The notes under the pieces: model-generated
What the model saw: the letters and a program-made list of their open reading frames with translations, nothing else
Told to the model about the DNA's origin: nothing
The model's database searches: none
Program-made: the position numbers and the translations under genes
Shown here: one piece after another, positions 51,249-62,451 of the stretch
Numbering within the stretch: the stretch's first letter is position 1
How the letters are laid out: each line of letters starts with the position of its first letter
Assembly (NCBI GenBank): GCA_963696385.1
Contig: CAVOKF010000005.1
Coordinates: forward strand, 1,440,001-1,504,000
Source: an uncultured delta proteobacterium
Lineage (GTDB): Bacteria; Myxococcota_A; Polyangia; Polyangiales; Polyangiaceae
DNA length: 64,000 nucleotides
Reading direction: 5' to 3'

Positions 51249-52742
51249 ATGTTTTGGAAGCGGCTAGTTATAGGTTCAATGGTTCGGAACCCAGCGCGGG
51301 CGGTGCGCTCCGCAGTCTCCGGCCGGTCACCGGTTGGGGAAGAATGCGCGCGTCGGAGGCGTGGCTGGCGCTCGGGAGCTCGGTCGGCGTGCGCGATCGC
51401 GGTCGCCTTCATCCCGCTTCTTGCGTCGCTTGGCGCGTGCGACGTAACGCTTTCCGCCACGGCCTCGATCGGTCAGCCGTGCCAGATCGACGAAGATTGT
51501 CCGCCGGGCCAGCGCTGCCTTGGCACTCCGAAAGGTACGCTGTGCGAGCTCGCAGACGCGGATGCTACCGTCGCGAACGACGGCGCACCGCAACCAGGAA
51601 GCGGATTCGCTGAGGGGGAGCCCCCGCTTGAAGTCGATGCGAGCGACGCAGACGTAACCGACCTCGGCGCTCAGGACGATGGCGAAGCCGATGCGAGTGG
51701 GGATGCGGCGAGTGACGCAGACGCAAGCGACGTCGAGGCTCAGGGCGAAGCCGATGCGAGTGGGGATGCGGCGAGTGACGCAGACGCAAGCGACATCGGC
51801 GCTCAGCACGATGGCGAAGCCGAGGCGAGTTGTATGACCCCGTTCCCCCCTTCCACCCTCGTCCTCTTCGGGGGACAGGGCAATCAATTCTTCGGCGACA
51901 CGTGGTCGTGGAACGGCGCGTCTTGGTCCCAAGTCGACGCGGGTGATGCGGTGAATCCGCCTCCGCGCCAAGCGGCGGCCATGGCGACGGCGTGCGGCTA
52001 CGCGGTTCTCGTGGGTGGAACGGGGCCTTTGCCGAACGACGGCGGCTCCCCCATCAAAGGTGACGCATGGCTGTGGAACGGCAGCCTATGGCAGCCGGCG
52101 GCGCCTCCTCCCACGGCTCGTTCCGCGGGCGCCGCCGCGACGCTCGGGTTCACGTTGTACCTCTTCGGCGGCGAGGGCCCAGGCGGGATCGACCCCACGG
52201 AGTCGGGACTCCTCACCTGGGACGGGATAGCCTGGTCGACCCCGCCCCAATCGAGCCCGTTGGGGCCGGCCCCGCGCGTATTCCCTGTCGTCGTTAGCGT
52301 CGAAGGCGGCCTGCTCGTTTTCGGCGGACAGGATGCTTATGGCGACGCCTTTCCCGACACTTGGCTGCTGAACGCCACGTCGTGGCAGGAGCTCGACGAC
52401 GGGGGCGCCGACTCTGGCCCGGCCTTGGGAGCGGCGGGCGCCACGAGCGTCGGAGGATCATCCGTCGTGATGTTCGGCGGGCTGGACGAGAACTACGATA
52501 CGCTGGGGGACACCTGGCTCTGGAATGGGGGGGCTTGGTCGAAGGTCCCGGCAGACGGCGGCCCTCCACCGCGCGCCTATCCCGCGATGGGAACCCTCAA
52601 CGGCCAGGTCGTCATGTTCGGCGGGCAGGACGAGAACTCCCATCCGCTGGGGGACACCTGGCTCTGGGACGGTGGAAGCTGGGTGCGCGGACCGGATGCG
52701 GGGCCGCTTCCCCGCACAGCCGCAGCGATGACGGCTTACTGA
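51249..52742 (+). CDS. Lipoprotein with acidic repeat linker and Kelch-like beta-propeller
   Basis: Lipobox LASLGAC; CQIDEDCPPGQRC; six LFGG...DTWxWNG-type blades; true start probably downstream of 51249. Confidence 0.82.
   Translation: MFWKRLVIGSMVRNPARAVRSAVSGRSPVGEECARRRRGWRSGARSACAIAVAFIPLLASLGACDVTLSATASIGQPCQIDEDCPPGQRCLGTPKGTLCELADADATVANDGAPQPGSGFAEGEPPLEVDASDADVTDLGAQDDGEADASGDAASDADASDVEAQGEADASGDAASDADASDIGAQHDGEAEASCMTPFPPSTLVLFGGQGNQFFGDTWSWNGASWSQVDAGDAVNPPPRQAAAMATACGYAVLVGGTGPLPNDGGSPIKGDAWLWNGSLWQPAAPPPTARSAGAAATLGFTLYLFGGEGPGGIDPTESGLLTWDGIAWSTPPQSSPLGPAPRVFPVVVSVEGGLLVFGGQDAYGDAFPDTWLLNATSWQELDDGGADSGPALGAAGATSVGGSSVVMFGGLDENYDTLGDTWLWNGGAWSKVPADGGPPPRAYPAMGTLNGQVVMFGGQDENSHPLGDTWLWDGGSWVRGPDAGPLPRTAAAMTAY
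51681..51830. repeat. In-frame 63/69-bp tandem repeat (GEADASGDAASDADASD)
   Basis: GGCGAAGCCGATGCGAGTGGGGATGCGGCGAGTGACGCAGACGCAAGCGAC at 51681 and 51744, partial at 51813. Confidence 0.88.
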
Positions 52743-57118: not shown

Positions 57119-57379
57119 CTACGCGACACGCGTGCGCGGCGGGAACGCTCGCCCGTCATTCCCTGACGCATGCCGAAGTTCGACCTGTCGCGACGCGCGC
57201 CAGGCCGCCTCATTGGCTTGCGCGGCAAGCGCACCCGGGTTGGCCTCGAGGATCCGACGCGTCGCTTCGTCAGGATTGAAAAAGTCCGCGCCCGCGGCAA
57301 TGGCCATTTCGCCGAGCACGCTGCTCTTGCCCGCTCCGTTGGTTCCTGCGAGGACGTAGATGCAGGCCCTTTCAGGCAT
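57119..57379 (-). pseudogene. Truncated zeta-toxin-like P-loop kinase/ATPase
   Basis: IYVLAGTNGAGKSS and FFNPDE...ANEAAW, then similarity ends; no FETT-type motif in any frame downstream. Confidence 0.8.
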
Positions 57380-57383
57380 GCTT

Positions 57384-57578
57384 CTATCGTGCGGCTACGC
57401 CCGCCACAGCCGCGGCTCCGAATTCCTCGGGCGTGGCCTCAAACGCCTTCTTCATTCCCGCCCGCGCCCGGGGGGTCTGCATCCGGACGAACATGGTGTC
57501 GAAATCGGCGCTCAACGTGTCGAGCGTGCGCGTGCGTCGAGCAAAAAACGCTCGGAAATCGTCAAACGAGATCAGGAC
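57384..57578 (-). pseudogene. Phd/YefM-type antitoxin, 3' half (split by the IS21 element)
   Basis: VLISFDDF...LDTLSADFDTMFVRMQTP...AFEATPEE; joins in frame to 62066-62240 across the target duplication. Confidence 0.85.
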
Positions 57579-57675
57579 CTTCAGCGGCGCCTTTAGAGTG
57601 ATCCACTTCTGGCGACCGAAGTGATCCACCCGTCGCCGGGGTCGGGGTGGCGGCAGCGGCGGGATCGTGACCCAC
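57579..57675. repeat. Left end of the IS21 element: terminal IR plus three transposase-binding repeats
   Basis: GTGATCCAC at 57598 and 57621 (23-bp period); GTGACCCAC at 57667. Confidence 0.88.
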
Positions 57676-57813
57676 CCCTTGCTATCGGAAAGGGCGCGCG
57701 TCAGGGCCAGTGGCTCACCCCGAGGTGCTCGGCCGGGCGAAGGGGGGAACCGCCAAGACGCCGGTAGGACTCGCGAGCGCTCGGGCTCGCGGCTCAGCGT
57801 GGGAGTCCGGCTA

Positions 57814-58128
57814 TCAGAAGGAGTTGTCGTCCGTGGGATCGTGCGCGGGTGGCATTGCCGCTTCGCGGACGGCGTGGCGGTAGCGCCAGAGCGTTTCGCG
57901 CAAGGTGGCGGCCCTGCGGCAGATCGTGTGGGCGAGGAAGACGACAGGGCCTTGGTCGCGTGGCCTATGGAAGTCGTCGATGAGCGTCTGGTGCTCGGCC
58001 AAGAGCGCGTCGGCAGCGAGGTCGAGCGCGTGTTCGAGCAGAATGATGGAGGCGAGCTCCGGCGCGACGACGAGGTCCGGGACGCGGGGCGGAGGCGGAG
58101 CGGGTGGAACGCGGCGCGGGCGCCTCAC
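57814..58128 (-). CDS. Small accessory protein of the IS21 element (104 aa)
   Basis: GTG start overlaps the istB stop (GTGA); helical APELASIILLEHALDLAADALLAEH. Confidence 0.65.
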   Translation of the reverse strand: MRRPRRVPPAPPPPRVPDLVVAPELASIILLEHALDLAADALLAEHQTLIDDFHRPRDQGPVVFLAHTICRRAATLRETLWRYRHAVREAAMPPAHDPTDDNSF

Positions 58129-58982
58129 GGCGCCGTCGCCCGAGTGGGTGCGACCGGCTTGCCGGCACGCTCGGCAGCGACGTGCTGGCGGTAGCTCGGT
58201 CCGTCGATGTCGATACGAATGGCATGCATGGCGAGCCGATCGAGAATGGCGGCGGCGACGGTCGCGTCTCCCAGGTAGCGTCCCCACTGGCGCAAATCGA
58301 TATTGGAGGTGACCGCGGTCGAGAGCTTGCCGTGCCTGCGATCGACGAGGTTGAACAGAGTATGGGCGGCGGTGGGCTCGTCGTCGCGCTGGCGCCCCAG
58401 GCCGACGTCGTCGATGACGAGCAGGTCGGGTCGTGCCCAGGCCTTCAGGCGTCGGGGGTAGGTGCCGTCGGCGAGGCCGGCGTGCAGGTCGGCGAGCAGG
58501 TCGACGCACCGCGCGTAGCGCAGGGAGATGCCCTGCACGCAGGCGCGCAGGGAGAGAGCCTTGAGGATGTGACTCTTGCCGGTGCCGCTCTTTCCCGTGA
58601 TGACCAGGTCGTCGTGGCGCCTGACGAAGTCGAGGCGGGCGAGCTCCAGCACGAGGCTCTTGTCGATCGAGGGTTGGAAGTCCCAGTCGAAGGCCTCGAG
58701 TGTCTTTCGCTCGACCAGGCCGCTGACCCGGATACGCCGGTCCAGGCGTGCGGCCGACTTGTGATCGACCTCAGCGGCCAGGACGTGCTCGAGCAGGGCG
58801 GTGTGTCCGGGTCGCTCGCGGGTGGCCCACGCGAGCCAGTCGTCGAGCGTGGAGAGCGTATGGGAGAGGCCCAAGTAGCCGAGGTGCCGGCGCAGGCGAT
58901 CGATCACCACGACGGCCTCGTCAGAGGCCGGGCCGGTCACCCGGTCATTGGAGTCTGGTTTATCCGTTTTGGTCTTGGCCAT
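58125..58982 (-). CDS. istB: IstB AAA+ ATPase (transposition helper)
   Basis: KTLEAFDWDFQP, GKSGTGKSH, LLVIDDVG, VTSN and AAILDRL; GGAG RBS. Confidence 0.95.
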   Translation of the reverse strand: MAKTKTDKPDSNDRVTGPASDEAVVVIDRLRRHLGYLGLSHTLSTLDDWLAWATRERPGHTALLEHVLAAEVDHKSAARLDRRIRVSGLVERKTLEAFDWDFQPSIDKSLVLELARLDFVRRHDDLVITGKSGTGKSHILKALSLRACVQGISLRYARCVDLLADLHAGLADGTYPRRLKAWARPDLLVIDDVGLGRQRDDEPTAAHTLFNLVDRRHGKLSTAVTSNIDLRQWGRYLGDATVAAAILDRLAMHAIRIDIDGPSYRQHVAAERAGKPVAPTRATAP

Positions 58983-60535
58983 CGGCGGTCTCCACGGGGC
59001 GGCGGGTGGCGAGCGGCAGAGCGTCGTACTCGGCCAGATCGCGGGGGCGTGTGACGACGGGACCGAGCGCGTCATCGATGCGCTTGGCGGTGTCTTCGGC
59101 GACGTACTCGTCGAGGGTCCGGGGCGGAGCGCGTCGGGCGAGGATGCGCTCGACCGAGGCCGCGTCGAGCGCGCCGAACCGAACGGCGTGCGCGAGGGCG
59201 GCGTCGACGTCGGCGCTGTCGTAGCGGGCACGCAAGAGCAGGATCTGCCGGGCGTGGTGGGTCCAGACACGGGTCACGTGGGCGCCCGAGAGCTGGAGCA
59301 GGAACGCGGCGGCCCCGTCGCCCATCTGCTCGAAGGTGGCGCGCAGCTTGTCGACGTCGATGGGCGACCGGCTCTCTGGGCGAGGATGCAGCCCGAGCGG
59401 ATCGATCTTGTCGCCGCGTCCGCGCGGTCGCAGCTCATAGCGCGCCAGGCAAGCGAGATTCGGCCCGTAGACGAACAGCTCCGTCTGCGTGATGCGCAGC
59501 GGCAGGAAGTCGGTCACATGGTCGTACGGCACGGCGTAGCGGTTACCGAGCCATTCGACGTACCCGTCGATGCTGCAGAGTCGATACGTGACCCGGGCGG
59601 TGTCGTACGGATGCTTGGGCAGCGGCCGCAGATGAGGCGCCTCGTCGCGAAACCGATCGAGGGCGGACAGCCCGTGACGCTTGCGCGGGTCGACGACGCG
59701 AACGAGCCAGTCGGCGAGCTGCGCGGCGAAGTCGTCGCGATCGCGGAAATGAGCGGCCGTTGAGAAACGATCGCTCGTGCTCCCAGAAGCTGCGTTCGAC
59801 GCGCGGCTTGGCGTTGGGTTTTCCTCGCACGGCGGCGGGCTGAATGCCGTAGTGCGCGGCAAAGGCGAGATACCGAGGATTGTAGATGGGCTGGTGGCCT
59901 TCCCACCGGAGCACGACGGGCTTTTGGCTGTCGTACTTGCAGCCCGCGGCGCAGCCGCCGAAGCGCGCGAAGGCGCGCTCGTGGCCGTCCATGAGCGCGA
60001 ACAAGTCCGGCGAGCCGAAGACGTCGAAGGACTTGCGCTTCGAATAGACCAGGACATACGAGAACAGCTGCACAGTCTCGGAGAGGCCGGTCGTGTACGT
60101 GAGCGTGTAGGGCGACCAATCGTTTTCGGCCATCTCACCCGGTCCGAACACCGGAGCTTCGAGGCTCGGCGTCGGCTTGGCCGCTGGCCGCACGCGCCGC
60201 ATCTGCTTCTTGACGGCGGTGTAGCCGCCTTGGAATCCCTCGTCCTTGAGGATCTCCAGCACGCGCTGCGCGGTGATGTCCGGGTAGCGCGCGAGCAACT
60301 CGCTCACGCGACCCTGGTAGGCGTCGATCTTGCGGGAACGCGGCGCGCGCACGGGCGCAGCGGCCAGCGCGGCGTGCCCGTCGTCGCGCTCGCGACCGTG
60401 GGTCCGAAGGATCTTCTTGATCGTGTTCCGACTGACCCCCAGCGCCCGCGTGATGGCGCGCCGGCTCATCCCCTGGGCCGTCAACACGACGACCTGGTGG
60501 ATCAATTCCTCGCGAGAGCGCCAGTGCACCGTCAT
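58960..60535 (-). pseudogene. istA: IstA DDE transposase with a 1-nt frameshift near 59748
   Basis: N-terminal HTH LGVSRNTIKK, FQGGYTAV, PGEMAENDW and KPRVER in one frame; FRDRDDF...DGYVEWLGNRYAVP in another. Confidence 0.9.
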
Positions 60536-61422
60536 GCCCTGCTCGCTCTCTCGGTCACGGCGGTGATCGTTTTCATCAGGCCGCCCAACACGCCATGGAG
60601 GTTGCTGAGATCGGGGCCCACGACGTCGGCGGCGGGTCCCAACGCGGCGAGCGGCATCCCGGCCAAACAGGCCTGAAGTCGCCCCGCGCTCCGTCGAATG
60701 GTCGTCACGTCGAGCGCGATCGTCTCGGCGATGCTCCTTGCCATGCGTGGGCGGCCGCGGCGCGCAGGCCGACCCCCGTCGCGCCAGCGCGCCAGCACCG
60801 CCTCATGCCCCGGCCCCGAGTCGTCCGCGAGCTCGCGCACCAAGAGGGCCGTCTGCCGCACGGTGAGCCCGCGACGGATGACGACCGCGGAGACCGCCGG
60901 CTGGTTGCCACGTGGCAACGCGCCGACGAGGATCGCTGCCCGCGGCGCGAGCAGCCCGAGTCGAACGTCGGCTTGGACCGACGAATCGAGCGCTTCGACC
61001 AGCATCAGGCGGCGACAGACCCAGCTCTTGTGGCAACGAAGCAGCGCAGCGATCGCCCCTTGCGTCACGTGATGCTCTCGATGCAGGGCGCGCACGATCC
61101 ACGCCTCCTCGAGCGCGGTGAGCCCGCGGCCAGCGTGCAGCTCGCGCATCTGCACGGTGGCATCGACGGCGCCAAGGTCGGTGACGACGGCGCGCAGATC
61201 GCGAAGGCCCAGCCCTCGCGCGGCGCGTAGCCGCTTGAAGCCGTCGAAGATCTCGACGGCGCCATCCCGCTCGAACGCGCGCACGGCGGAGAGCTGGCCG
61301 TGCTGCTTGAGCGACGCGCGCATGGCGGCCAGCGCGCAGGCGTCGGCGAGGCGCAGCCGCGACAGGCCCTCGCCGAGATCGGCGACGGCGACGAGGCGCT
61401 CGGCTTGAGCAGCGGCGGTCAC
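60532..61422 (-). CDS. ParB/Spo0J-like protein (ParB/Srx CTPase-like domain plus HTH)
   Basis: SLKQHGQL...IFDGFKRLRAA; LTALEEA...TQGAIAALLRCHKSWVCRRL; stop overlaps istA ATG; GTG start at 61422 inferred. Confidence 0.85.
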   Translation of the reverse strand: MTAAAQAERLVAVADLGEGLSRLRLADACALAAMRASLKQHGQLSAVRAFERDGAVEIFDGFKRLRAARGLGLRDLRAVVTDLGAVDATVQMRELHAGRGLTALEEAWIVRALHREHHVTQGAIAALLRCHKSWVCRRLMLVEALDSSVQADVRLGLLAPRAAILVGALPRGNQPAVSAVVIRRGLTVRQTALLVRELADDSGPGHEAVLARWRDGGRPARRGRPRMARSIAETIALDVTTIRRSAGRLQACLAGMPLAALGPAADVVGPDLSNLHGVLGGLMKTITAVTERASRA

Positions 61423-61445
61423 GGCCGCGAATCCACCACGACTCG

Positions 61446-61916
61446 TTACCCGGCACGAGACCGGCCCGTGACGCTGTCCAGGTCCAGGCCCGATCGGCAG
61501 CCGTTTTCCCCAGCTTCCAGCGCGCAGGGTAGCTCGTGACATGGGCCCACTCTGTCCACTTTGGCGGGCCCAAAAGGGCCGATTTTCCGCAGAATTCGCC
61601 CCAGATCGCGGCGGAGGGTAGCTCGTGACAGGCTCGCGGCCTTGTCCACGATCTGCTGTGCTTTACGCAATAAATCCGCGCTGTTGCCGTCCGAGGGTAG
61701 CTCGTGACATCCGGCCGCCTCGGCGCCGTCCCGGCGCCTTTGCTGGCGTGCGCGCTCGTCGGCCCGCTGCTCGTCCAGGTCGTTGCGCCGCCTCCGGCGC
61801 GCCTGACGGTTGCGGCGCTGGCCGCGGCACCCCTCTCCGCACACAACTTGGTGATCGAGCGCGCTCACGGCAGGTGTGAACCACTTCCGGCACTCGCTGC
61901 ATCGACGCCTGGACAT
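61446..61916 (-). CDS. Cys4 zinc-finger-like basic ORF at the 5' end of the IS21 element
   Basis: CSECRKWF...QVVCGEGC followed by an Arg-rich helix; the C-terminal half overlaps the repeat array and may not be coding. Confidence 0.6.
   Translation of the reverse strand: MSRRRCSECRKWFTPAVSALDHQVVCGEGCRGQRRNRQARRRRRNDLDEQRADERARQQRRRDGAEAAGCHELPSDGNSADLLRKAQQIVDKAASLSRATLRRDLGRILRKIGPFGPAKVDRVGPCHELPCALEAGENGCRSGLDLDSVTGRSRAG
61458..61709 (-). repeat. Array of 16-bp direct repeats TGTCACGAGCTACCCT (three perfect, one degenerate)
   Basis: + strand AGGGTAGCTCGTGACA at 61526, 61615 and 61694; 10/16 copy at 61458. Confidence 0.9.
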
Positions 61917-61968
61917 CGACGCCAGCGTCCGGCGAGACGCCCTCGATCGCGCGTTCCACGGCGCCCCC

Positions 61969-62065
61969 CTGGATCACGATCCCGCCGCCCGCGGCCGCCC
62001 CTTCAGGCCGTGCCGTGGATCACGATCCCGCCGTGCAGTGGATCACGACGAGGGCGCCGCTGAAG
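61969..62065. repeat. Right end of the IS21 element: three transposase-binding repeats plus terminal IR
   Basis: TGGATCACGA at 61970, 62016 and 62039; ends GGCGCCGCTGAAG. Confidence 0.88.
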
Positions 62066-62240
62066 TCAGGACGGCCTTGGGCGTGTTCTGCTTGTTGATG
62101 ACGACGAAGCCGCGGCGCGCGGTCGTGTCGAGCAGGTCTGCGAAGGCATTGCGCGCGTCGGTCGCGGACACCTCCGTGAACTCCACCTGCCTCGAGGAGA
62201 CGTTTCGCGACGTGGCGACCGCCTGGCGCACCTCGGACAT
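62066..62240 (-). pseudogene. Phd/YefM-type antitoxin, 5' half
   Basis: VSATDARNAFADLLD...VVINKQNTPKAVL is a Phd DNA-binding domain pattern; start uncertain. Confidence 0.85.
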
Positions 62241-62451
62241 CTGACGGTACAACGCGATGGCACGAGCGACCGTCTCCTCAAGAAGGGCGGGCTCCGGCGA
62301 GCGTTTCAGTTCGAAGAGCATCCAGTCCTGCTTGCCGCGTCGGCGCGTCCGGCATGCCGCTGCCCCAGCGGGGGGTGGCACAAGTCATTGGGCTACGGTC
62401 CCAGCCCGAACATGCGCTTCAGGCCCTTGCGGCGTCCCGCACGGCTGGCGC

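Follow-up and report, generated by a model that had tools for sequence, protein, structure and literature searches.

IS21 serves as the structural model for ATPase-assisted transposition. The prototype carries istA and istB only, makes 5-bp target duplications and ends in a terminal CA (PMC10122671). In the structures described in PMC11208146, IstB turns a 60-bp duplex through about 180 degrees while tracking it at 10.5 bp, and two IstB decamers form an S-shaped target with the insertion point at its junction; how IstB yields target immunity is stated in the same paper as an open question. Orphan ParBs on mobile elements are described in the 2025 ParB-CTPase fold survey (10.1101/2025.10.10.680097), according to which sequence is no reliable predictor of nucleotide specificity, and the main text of which contains neither 'transpos' nor 'IS21'. 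A ParB-like gene can also be part of TIGR loci (PMC12045711). Lac repression loops in vivo have their optimum at 78.7-79.2 bp (PMC1919473, Table 2) and follow a helical repeat of 10.7-11.6 bp (PMC1919473).

The element described here combines the IS21 genes with a zinc finger gene, a parB-like gene, an array of direct repeats and a palindrome. Its features are given below in coordinates of the window, that is, the whole stretch of 64,000 nucleotides that was analysed.

57579..62065, minus strand: IS21-family element, 4487 bp, gene order orf1-parB-istA-istB
57572-57578 and 62066-62072: 7-bp target duplication flanking the element
61968..62065, minus strand: left end with three GTGATCCA-type repeats
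61446..61916, minus strand: orf1, a Cys4 zinc finger gene
61694..61709, minus strand: array site 1, exact copy of TGTCACGAGCTACCCT
61631..61693, minus strand: spacer 1, 63 nt, period 79
61615..61630, minus strand: array site 2, exact copy
61542..61614, minus strand: spacer 2, 73 nt, period 89
61526..61541, minus strand: array site 3, exact copy
61474..61525, minus strand: spacer 3, 52 nt, period 68
61458..61473, minus strand: array site 4, degenerate (10/16 identity), scored as a site by the profile scan
60532..61422, minus strand: parB-like gene (start about 61422), ParB/Noc fold with HTH
60904..60919, no strand: 16-bp palindrome GTTGCCACGTGGCAAC inside parB, coding for L-P-R-G-N
58960..60535, minus strand: istA transposase (NF033546, 172 bits, cut-off 160)
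58125..58982, minus strand: istB AAA+ helper (NF038214, 214.7 bits, cut-off 200; PF01695, E 5e-55)
57579..57680, plus strand: right end with GTGATCCAC-type repeats

Like IS21 and IS5376, the element combines a DDE transposase IstA and an IstB encoded directly after it, both scoring above their cut-offs, with multi-repeat ends, target duplications and a multicopy state, and we place it in the IS21 family on these grounds. It differs from IS21 in the extra orf1 and parB genes, in the internal phased array and the internal palindrome, and in its termini: the duplications are 7-8 bp (5 bp in studied IS21), and the ends of 54/62 relatives start with 5'-CT instead of carrying the 3' CA (PMC10122671). 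The copies in this genome, whose 5' start is CTTCAGCGGCG, begin like those 54 relatives with 5'-CTT and not with TG, so that the transferred 3' end would be AG, not CA; we read this as a variant end that does not exclude the element from the family. The left-end repeats, which number three in 38 of the 62 relatives with a located end, are likely IstA sites.

Besides six full copies, the host genome (G000) contains a copy with an internal deletion and a partial copy at a contig end; the large copies lie at C4:1130-1172 kb, C5:1497-1529 kb, C7:1349-1434 kb and C3:1-3 kb. Both ends could be read in five copies, three of which have duplications of 7-8 bp. In the copy studied here, a frameshift near 59746 interrupts istA; it is confined to this copy, reflecting mutation or assembly error, and an intact istA ORF of 524 aa is present in another. 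The istB gene of the studied copy is 6 nt shorter near 58396 than in the other five. The insertion splits a Phd/YefM antitoxin gene (57384-57629 and 62043-62381, minus strand), next after which lies a short AAA-like ORF at 57119-57379. The internally deleted copy lacks the array, parB and the palindrome, but its flanks show no duplication, and it thus neither supports nor refutes a need for these sequences in cis. We also noticed that none of the eight large copies is farther than about 100 kb from a contig end, and that copies are often separated by 20-50 kb; the 12 loci of one other assembly were spread out.

A previous sequence-only reading of this DNA had reported three perfect copies of a 16-mer with periods of 79 and 89 bp, a partial fourth copy 68 bp beyond the third, and a repeat type distinct from that of the element's ends, and all of this was borne out. 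Exact matching recovered the three copies, and matches to TGTCACGAGCTACCCT with three or fewer mismatches numbered five as compared with a mean of 0.32 in shuffled sequences (n=100); the copy at 61458-61473 agrees with the 16-mer at 10 of its 16 positions. The 18 exact copies of the 16-mer in the 6.9-Mb genome all fall within the six full element copies. The presence of three identical site copies is unusual (9/90 elements with at least four sites). At an identical 79/89 spacing, another 16-mer occurs in a diverged paralogue (about 70% nucleotide identity) within this genome. The array occupies the 3' half of the conserved gene orf1 (61446-61916), and site 4 starts about 47 bp ahead of the parB start of homologues (~61422).

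As had been noted from the letters, the three perfect copies are read in different frames of the overlapping ORF, as CHELP, LSRATL and CHELP, and the constraint at the nucleotide level proposed on that basis held up in the family: the middle interval of the array occurs in all three frames, indicating that the constraint acts on DNA. We rejected a repeat at the protein level, as sites 1, 3 and 4 are read in several frames and the end of orf1 varies, its stop lying after site 2, 3 or 4 in 18, 37 and 32 of 87 elements, respectively. Site 2 is held in one orf1 frame (L-S-R-A) in 86/87 four-site elements. Elsewhere in the window, at 51612-51832, in-frame 63/69-nt repeats in a predicted 497-aa ORF resemble ordinary protein repeats.

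The family was surveyed through its ParB. From 8000 scored candidates, 1447 were relatives at E 1e-20 or better; 170 loci were gathered, of which 154 had either sufficient upstream DNA or an anchor that could be used, and dereplication of these left 114 clusters. istA comes next after parB in 97 of the 100 clusters with sufficient downstream DNA, and the record titles name mostly Myxococcota, together with Planctomycetota, Chloroflexota, Actinomycetota, Verrucomicrobiota and others. The GTCAC arrays emerged from a repeat finder run without a seed, with a mean score of 25.5 versus 22.3 for parB and 21.1 for shuffles. A profile scan, which yielded the family motif (T)GTCACG-N-GCC-R-S-C-Y-T, detected 384 sites in 44 kb upstream as compared with 29 in 285 kb downstream. 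The array is kept in related elements: at least three sites are present in 96/114 dereplicated relatives, and the four main sites in 87. In the variable part of the motif, likeness is 8.4/10 within elements and 6.5 between elements, suggesting that the copies of an array change together. When we searched for arrays first, eight true arrays were found, and some ParB-family gene lay downstream of all eight. The plasmid collection contained no ParB relative at E 1e-15; viral contigs gave one ParB relative and five two-site pattern matches, none of which had orf1 or ParB.

The spacing of the sites follows the DNA helix. Adjacent sites are 67-70, 76-79, 88-91 or 99-100 bp apart in 277/287 intervals, and spacings of 71-75, 80-87 or 92-98 bp did not occur at all. 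The spacer 2 period in relatives is 77-79, 88-91 or 99-100, and that of spacer 3 is 67-70 in 86/87 relatives. The best period of these spacings is 10.5 bp with a half-integer phase, and the phasing of the 19 distinct interval values was better than that of 2000/2000 random sets. In addition, all three spacers carry A/T patches in the same phase, lying some 24, 35, 45 and 56 bp past the start of the site, and their periodicity power is 0.49-0.65, compared with at most 0.13 in parB controls. An amphipathic helix of the orf1 protein could contribute to the signal in spacer 1, while spacer 3 has no such explanation, and the power is still 0.42 in the 22 elements whose spacer 3 falls outside orf1. 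With a turn of 10.5 bp, successive spacers differ in A/T phase by -165 and +161 degrees, so that the bend direction alternates; this flip exceeds 90 degrees in 87/87 elements at the first step and in 98% of 87 at the second. The fixed spacing classes and the phased A/T patches in every spacer point to a DNA architecture, and we are highly confident that the array is a protein-binding scaffold at the DNA level.

In the studied copy, spacer 1 shows four A/T patches in 10.5-bp steps, an inverted TGG(G)AC sub-motif at about offset 61 and a weak IHF-like match. The sub-motif recurs at offset 60-61 (+10.5n) in 70, 58 and 51 of 87 spacers 1, 2 and 3. With the IHF consensus WATCAANNNNTTR, as printed in PMC1919473, a match was found in spacer 1 of 43% of elements versus 13% of shuffles, with little or no enrichment in spacer 2 (7% versus 6%) or spacer 3 (15% versus 9%). 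The host encodes HU/IHF-family proteins.

The array resembles Lac repression loops in that a site spacing of 63-100 bp keeps to the helical repeat and is best at around 79 bp: its commonest spacing, 79, is the in vivo optimum of the Lac loop, and its spacings are in phase at the Lac-type in vivo repeat, near 11 bp. It differs from Lac loops in having four asymmetric direct repeats within the presumed regulator's own gene, encoded A/T phasing, and a predicted reader made of a zinc finger and a basic helix. No phasing links site 1 to the left end (R 0.06, distinct values) or the array to the palindrome, showing that the array is self-contained.

What protein reads the array? The model of the orf1 protein consists of a Cys4 zinc finger, a 40-residue Arg-rich basic helix and a helical hairpin (pLDDT 90), the last coded over array sites 1-2. 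Eight columns are invariant in 87 sequences, namely four Cys and four Arg. The N-terminal part gave a weak match to NinG in 63/87 sequences; fold searches gave no clear match (best Z 5.4; best E 0.007), fold and profile searches together found no characterised DNA-binding relative, and in the Atlas orf1 fell into unnamed clusters only, with a recognition value under the Atlas threshold.

The presence of the array is tied to the type of orf1. A profile of the upstream part of orf1, which was built from array-bearing elements, scores these at 44 bits or more and the others at 34 or less (120 ParB rows). On the ParB tree of these 120 rows, the array changes nine times and the orf1 class changes nine times, the array always going with the orf1 type; in independent pairs, array and orf1 class agree in 6-7/7 cases (median p 0.016). 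For a set of 114 rows placed on both trees, array class changes four times on the tree of orf1 N-termini as compared with nine times on the ParB tree. It should be noted that the array overlaps orf1, and both are thus inherited together whatever the function. Fine variants of the class I motif fit the orf1 and ParB trees equally well. In a second orf1 clade, found both in IS21 elements and upstream of large serine recombinases, the motif is of the GCGAGACG type and the spacing 69/69. At four such loci (L204-L207; G079), orf1 with its 69/69 array overlaps the recombinase start; a RepB-type ParB pair comes next in two of the four, and one recombinase is fused to the end of a type I restriction subunit. 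Remnants of a clade II element and class I fragments were also seen in the host genome itself (G000 C8:656.3-657.2 kb, C5:730.3-730.5 kb, C1:358.4 kb and C1:367.9 kb).

ParB does not vary with the array. The earlier suggestion that the repeats co-vary with the ParB recognition helix failed, as HKSWVxRR does not differ among elements that carry this array, the clade II array or none, although its constancy in the genome scan, which selected for this motif, is partly by design. The ParBs of L115 and L116 are 91% identical, yet one has the array and the other an unrelated zinc-finger gene and no array; those of L064 and L088, 81% identical, differ in just the same way in array presence. TGTCAC arrays with 79/90/70-type spacing also precede ParBs only 28-37% identical to this one. 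The nine array changes on the ParB tree and the differing sister ParBs argue against the proposal that the 16-bp repeats are the cognate parS, and the repeats, being asymmetric and all on one strand, do not have the form of a palindromic 16-bp site. Five elements that lack the array (L070, L088, L092, L101 and L116) have another Cys-rich gene with a basic helix, and in three of the five a near-palindromic GTGACGCA(T/A)CA follows the basic helix, perhaps as a single operator. IstA is not favoured as the array binder either, since array-less relatives keep the end repeats and an IstA of 59-66% identity. We consider the orf1 protein the probable reader of the array; given the linkage, the variants and the array-first result, the case against ParB as a specific reader is stronger than the case for orf1. 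A scan for sigma-70 promoters gave none in or around the array, where none was expected from shuffles either, and three metatranscriptomes of the same study have zero cover over the array, which is uninformative either way on expression.

The ParB-like protein appears to have a different site. Its model matches ParB/Noc structures (Foldseek E 4.5e-11; HMM E 1e-22), and it shares with the ParB/Noc clamps the fold and the HTH. R24, D60, G61 and R64, which align with Noc/ParB motifs, are invariant in 76 sequences, with K replacing the first R. Unlike ParB/Noc and repABC systems, the element has a ParB without the N-terminal arm, a GERR-type motif that reads DGFKR, and no parA among its ORFs, so that the usual ParABS partner is missing. 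A search for recurrent palindromes found GTTGCCACGTGGCAAC, and a perfect palindrome stands at the same parB offset in 98/114 clusters. With 5/114 having no LPRGN match (three truncated loci and two variants), 109 could be placed; 94 of them are perfect, and the arms disagree at no more than one position in 108. The Leu codon is TTG in 87/87 compared with 9% in the background, the Pro3 and Arg3 positions are complementary in 85/88, and compensatory variants such as LQRCN (8 perfect cases) change the protein while retaining the symmetry. The palindrome is present in array-less and clade II elements as well; in a distant ParB clade, a different palindrome, G(T/A)TGGCSCGSGCCA(A/T)C, stands at the equivalent position in seven of the eight loci that the script could place. 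Palindrome type changes only twice on the ParB tree, the co-variation expected of a parS.

The sequence-only reading had proposed a transposon-borne parS, and this idea stands for the palindrome, a 16-bp site at 60904-60919 conserved as DNA and of a type linked to ParB, but not for the direct repeats; array and palindrome are separate features. The sequence evidence makes the palindrome, in all likelihood, a putative ParB site of the parS loading type. It resembles the repABC-type parS consensus GTTNNCNGCNGNNAAC (PMC9040568) as a 16-bp GTT...AAC palindrome and differs from it in its CG centre, in its location inside parB, in being single in each element and in being transposon-borne. A host chromosomal parS was rejected: its consensus matches the element only at five mismatches. 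The array core TGTCACG and the palindrome half TGCCACG are one base apart, and weak binding of ParB to half-sites in the array is therefore possible.

All ten perfect GTTG-N8-CAAC palindromes of the genome lie in element derivatives. Two of these derivatives are mini-elements of 1.0 kb (C2:55526-56528 and C5:738918-739918) with the same ends and 7-8-bp duplications, which keep the palindrome amid unrelated flanking sequence and in which our searches detected no array and no element gene. A third mini-element, of 279 bp and single-copy in its genome (G579), shares these ends, is flanked by a 7-bp duplication and retains the palindrome but has no array. The palindrome is thus conserved at the DNA level and also in mini-elements, while the array is missing from mini-elements that have moved. 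An A/T-rich core was noticed besides the palindrome in the 1-kb mini-elements. A degenerate palindrome search of 301 genomes was noisy: of 30 loci fetched, six were family parB, one was a mini-element and 23 were unassigned. A longer near-palindrome akin to that of parB lies at C7:1424422 of the host genome, 5 kb from an element copy and outside detected elements. In another genome (L263, G567) a GTTGCCGCGCGGCAAC palindrome occurs in nine copies, and the copy fetched stands beside a transposase-like ORF without a parB of this family.

Several other explanations of the array have to be weighed. That it is a repeat-spacer RNA processed to targeting guides, as the sequence-only reading had speculated, is extremely improbable. 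The repeat-spacer layout recalls such an array, and folding of the antisense strand is slightly favoured over that of shuffles (mean z -1.0, 22 elements), but that of the sense strand is not (z = -0.08), the consensus fold has three pairs at -0.34 kcal/mol with no compensatory change, and Rfam gave no match to the array. The spacers of a guide-RNA array are variable, independently acquired and target-matching, and those of the present array are homologous across elements, align without gaps at 54% mean identity (71 elements) and vary in length by steps of one helical turn. Nor did they find a target: the best match in the genome outside element copies was a 17-mer (E 0.02), insertion flanks gave random-level scores, and phages gave no match. 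The locus is like TIGR-Tas with TasParB in having spaced repeats near a ParB-like gene (PMC12045711), and is unlike TIGR-Tas and CRISPR in its conserved homologous spacers, with no conserved RNA structure and no target match; the element's ORFs had no match to Tas- or Cas-like families. A serpentine landing pad for IstB is conceivable, though unlikely. Each spacer would make the U-turn for one IstB decamer, with alternating turns, and the orf1 protein at the junctions would block IstA, making the array a decoy target, a means of self-immunity or an IstB-sensing switch. The bending by IstB and the S-shaped target of two decamers would suit this arrangement, and the array is indeed like that complex in its U-turns of about 60 bp, 10.5-bp pitch and alternating direction (PMC11208146); in addition, clade II arrays of IS21 elements have a stronger A/T periodicity (0.27, 20 units) than arrays that are orphan or linked to recombinases (0.15, 10 units). 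The array is unlike the IstB complex in being written into the element's own DNA, with specific sites where the turns would meet, and IstB binding to it is hypothetical. Moreover, IS21 elements with IstB but without the array occur, arrays stand upstream of serine recombinases where no istB was found, the 68-100-bp units are longer than the 60-bp duplex of the structure, and at an in vivo repeat of about 11 bp the spacings are in phase.

We also doubt that the array is a second class of ParB site, in which half-sites for the HTH or the C-terminal domain would build a large complex with the palindrome. P1 parS, with its two box types and IHF, offers a precedent, and the one-base difference between the array core and the palindrome half, the ParB-family gene after every array of the array-first search, the RepB-type pair at two of the four recombinase-linked loci and the IHF-like enrichment in spacer 1 of a host with HU/IHF-family genes are all in line with it. 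On the other side, array type changes nine times on the ParB tree as against two for the palindrome, sister ParBs of 91% identity differ in array presence, the array core stays constant across palindrome variants, array and palindrome are unphased, and IHF-like matches are little or not enriched in spacers 2 and 3. A cis-acting transposition enhancer that organises end synapsis is very unlikely: phased protein sites near an element end do recall Hin, where synapsis occurs on supercoiled DNA at an enhancer bound by Fis (PMC4513852), but the array-free mini-elements of 1.0 kb (two copies) and 279 bp carry 7-8-bp duplications, and site 1 is unphased to the left end. It is similarly very unlikely that the repeats are the target of a transcription factor or nucleoid protein of the host, with orf1 doing no more than overlap them. 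The A/T phasing fits a general DNA-bending protein, whereas the motif tracks the orf1 clade, class I arrays are found in records from several phyla, and a class I array coexists with a class II remnant within the host genome studied here.

Taken together, the array is real and well conserved, is neither the element's parS nor an RNA array, and represents a putative new regulatory architecture in a ParB-carrying IS21 variant. It is self-contained, phased and A/T-patterned, and is co-inherited with the orf1 type, not with ParB. As a working model, which we hold tentatively and give somewhat less than an even chance as a whole, a phased orf1-bound array forms a loop to hold down the operon and ParB loads at the separate palindrome. 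Oligomers of the orf1 protein would bind the four sites and loop or wrap the A/T-phased spacers, possibly assisted by HU or IHF, and the loop would block transcription into parB-istA-istB; control of the operon may be the main output of the array. ParB would load at the palindrome, presumably using CTP, and may act as a transposition accessory, for example by marking self DNA. A bolder alternative, which seems rather doubtful, is that this widespread IS21 branch depends on a nucleotide-driven ParB sliding clamp whose loading at a parS within the parB gene is a cis requirement for transposition, and that its array is a serpentine platform, encoded in the sequence, on which IstB is captured and each kink is capped by the zinc-finger protein.

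Within the literature searched, no description of this IS21 branch, of the array or of the palindrome turned up. To the system that serves as the model of ATPase-assisted transposition, this branch adds two cis-acting DNA modules with separate partners. The array provides a natural, family-wide loop or wrap geometry beneath protein-coding sequence, and its spacing classes predict that insertions of 10-11 bp are tolerated and those of 5 bp are not. If ParB loading is needed for movement, a ParB clamp would have a role in transposition, a role absent from the literature searched; and if the combination of ParB clamp and IstB platform is true, it would give a transposon a new means of self-marking and of gating the transposase.
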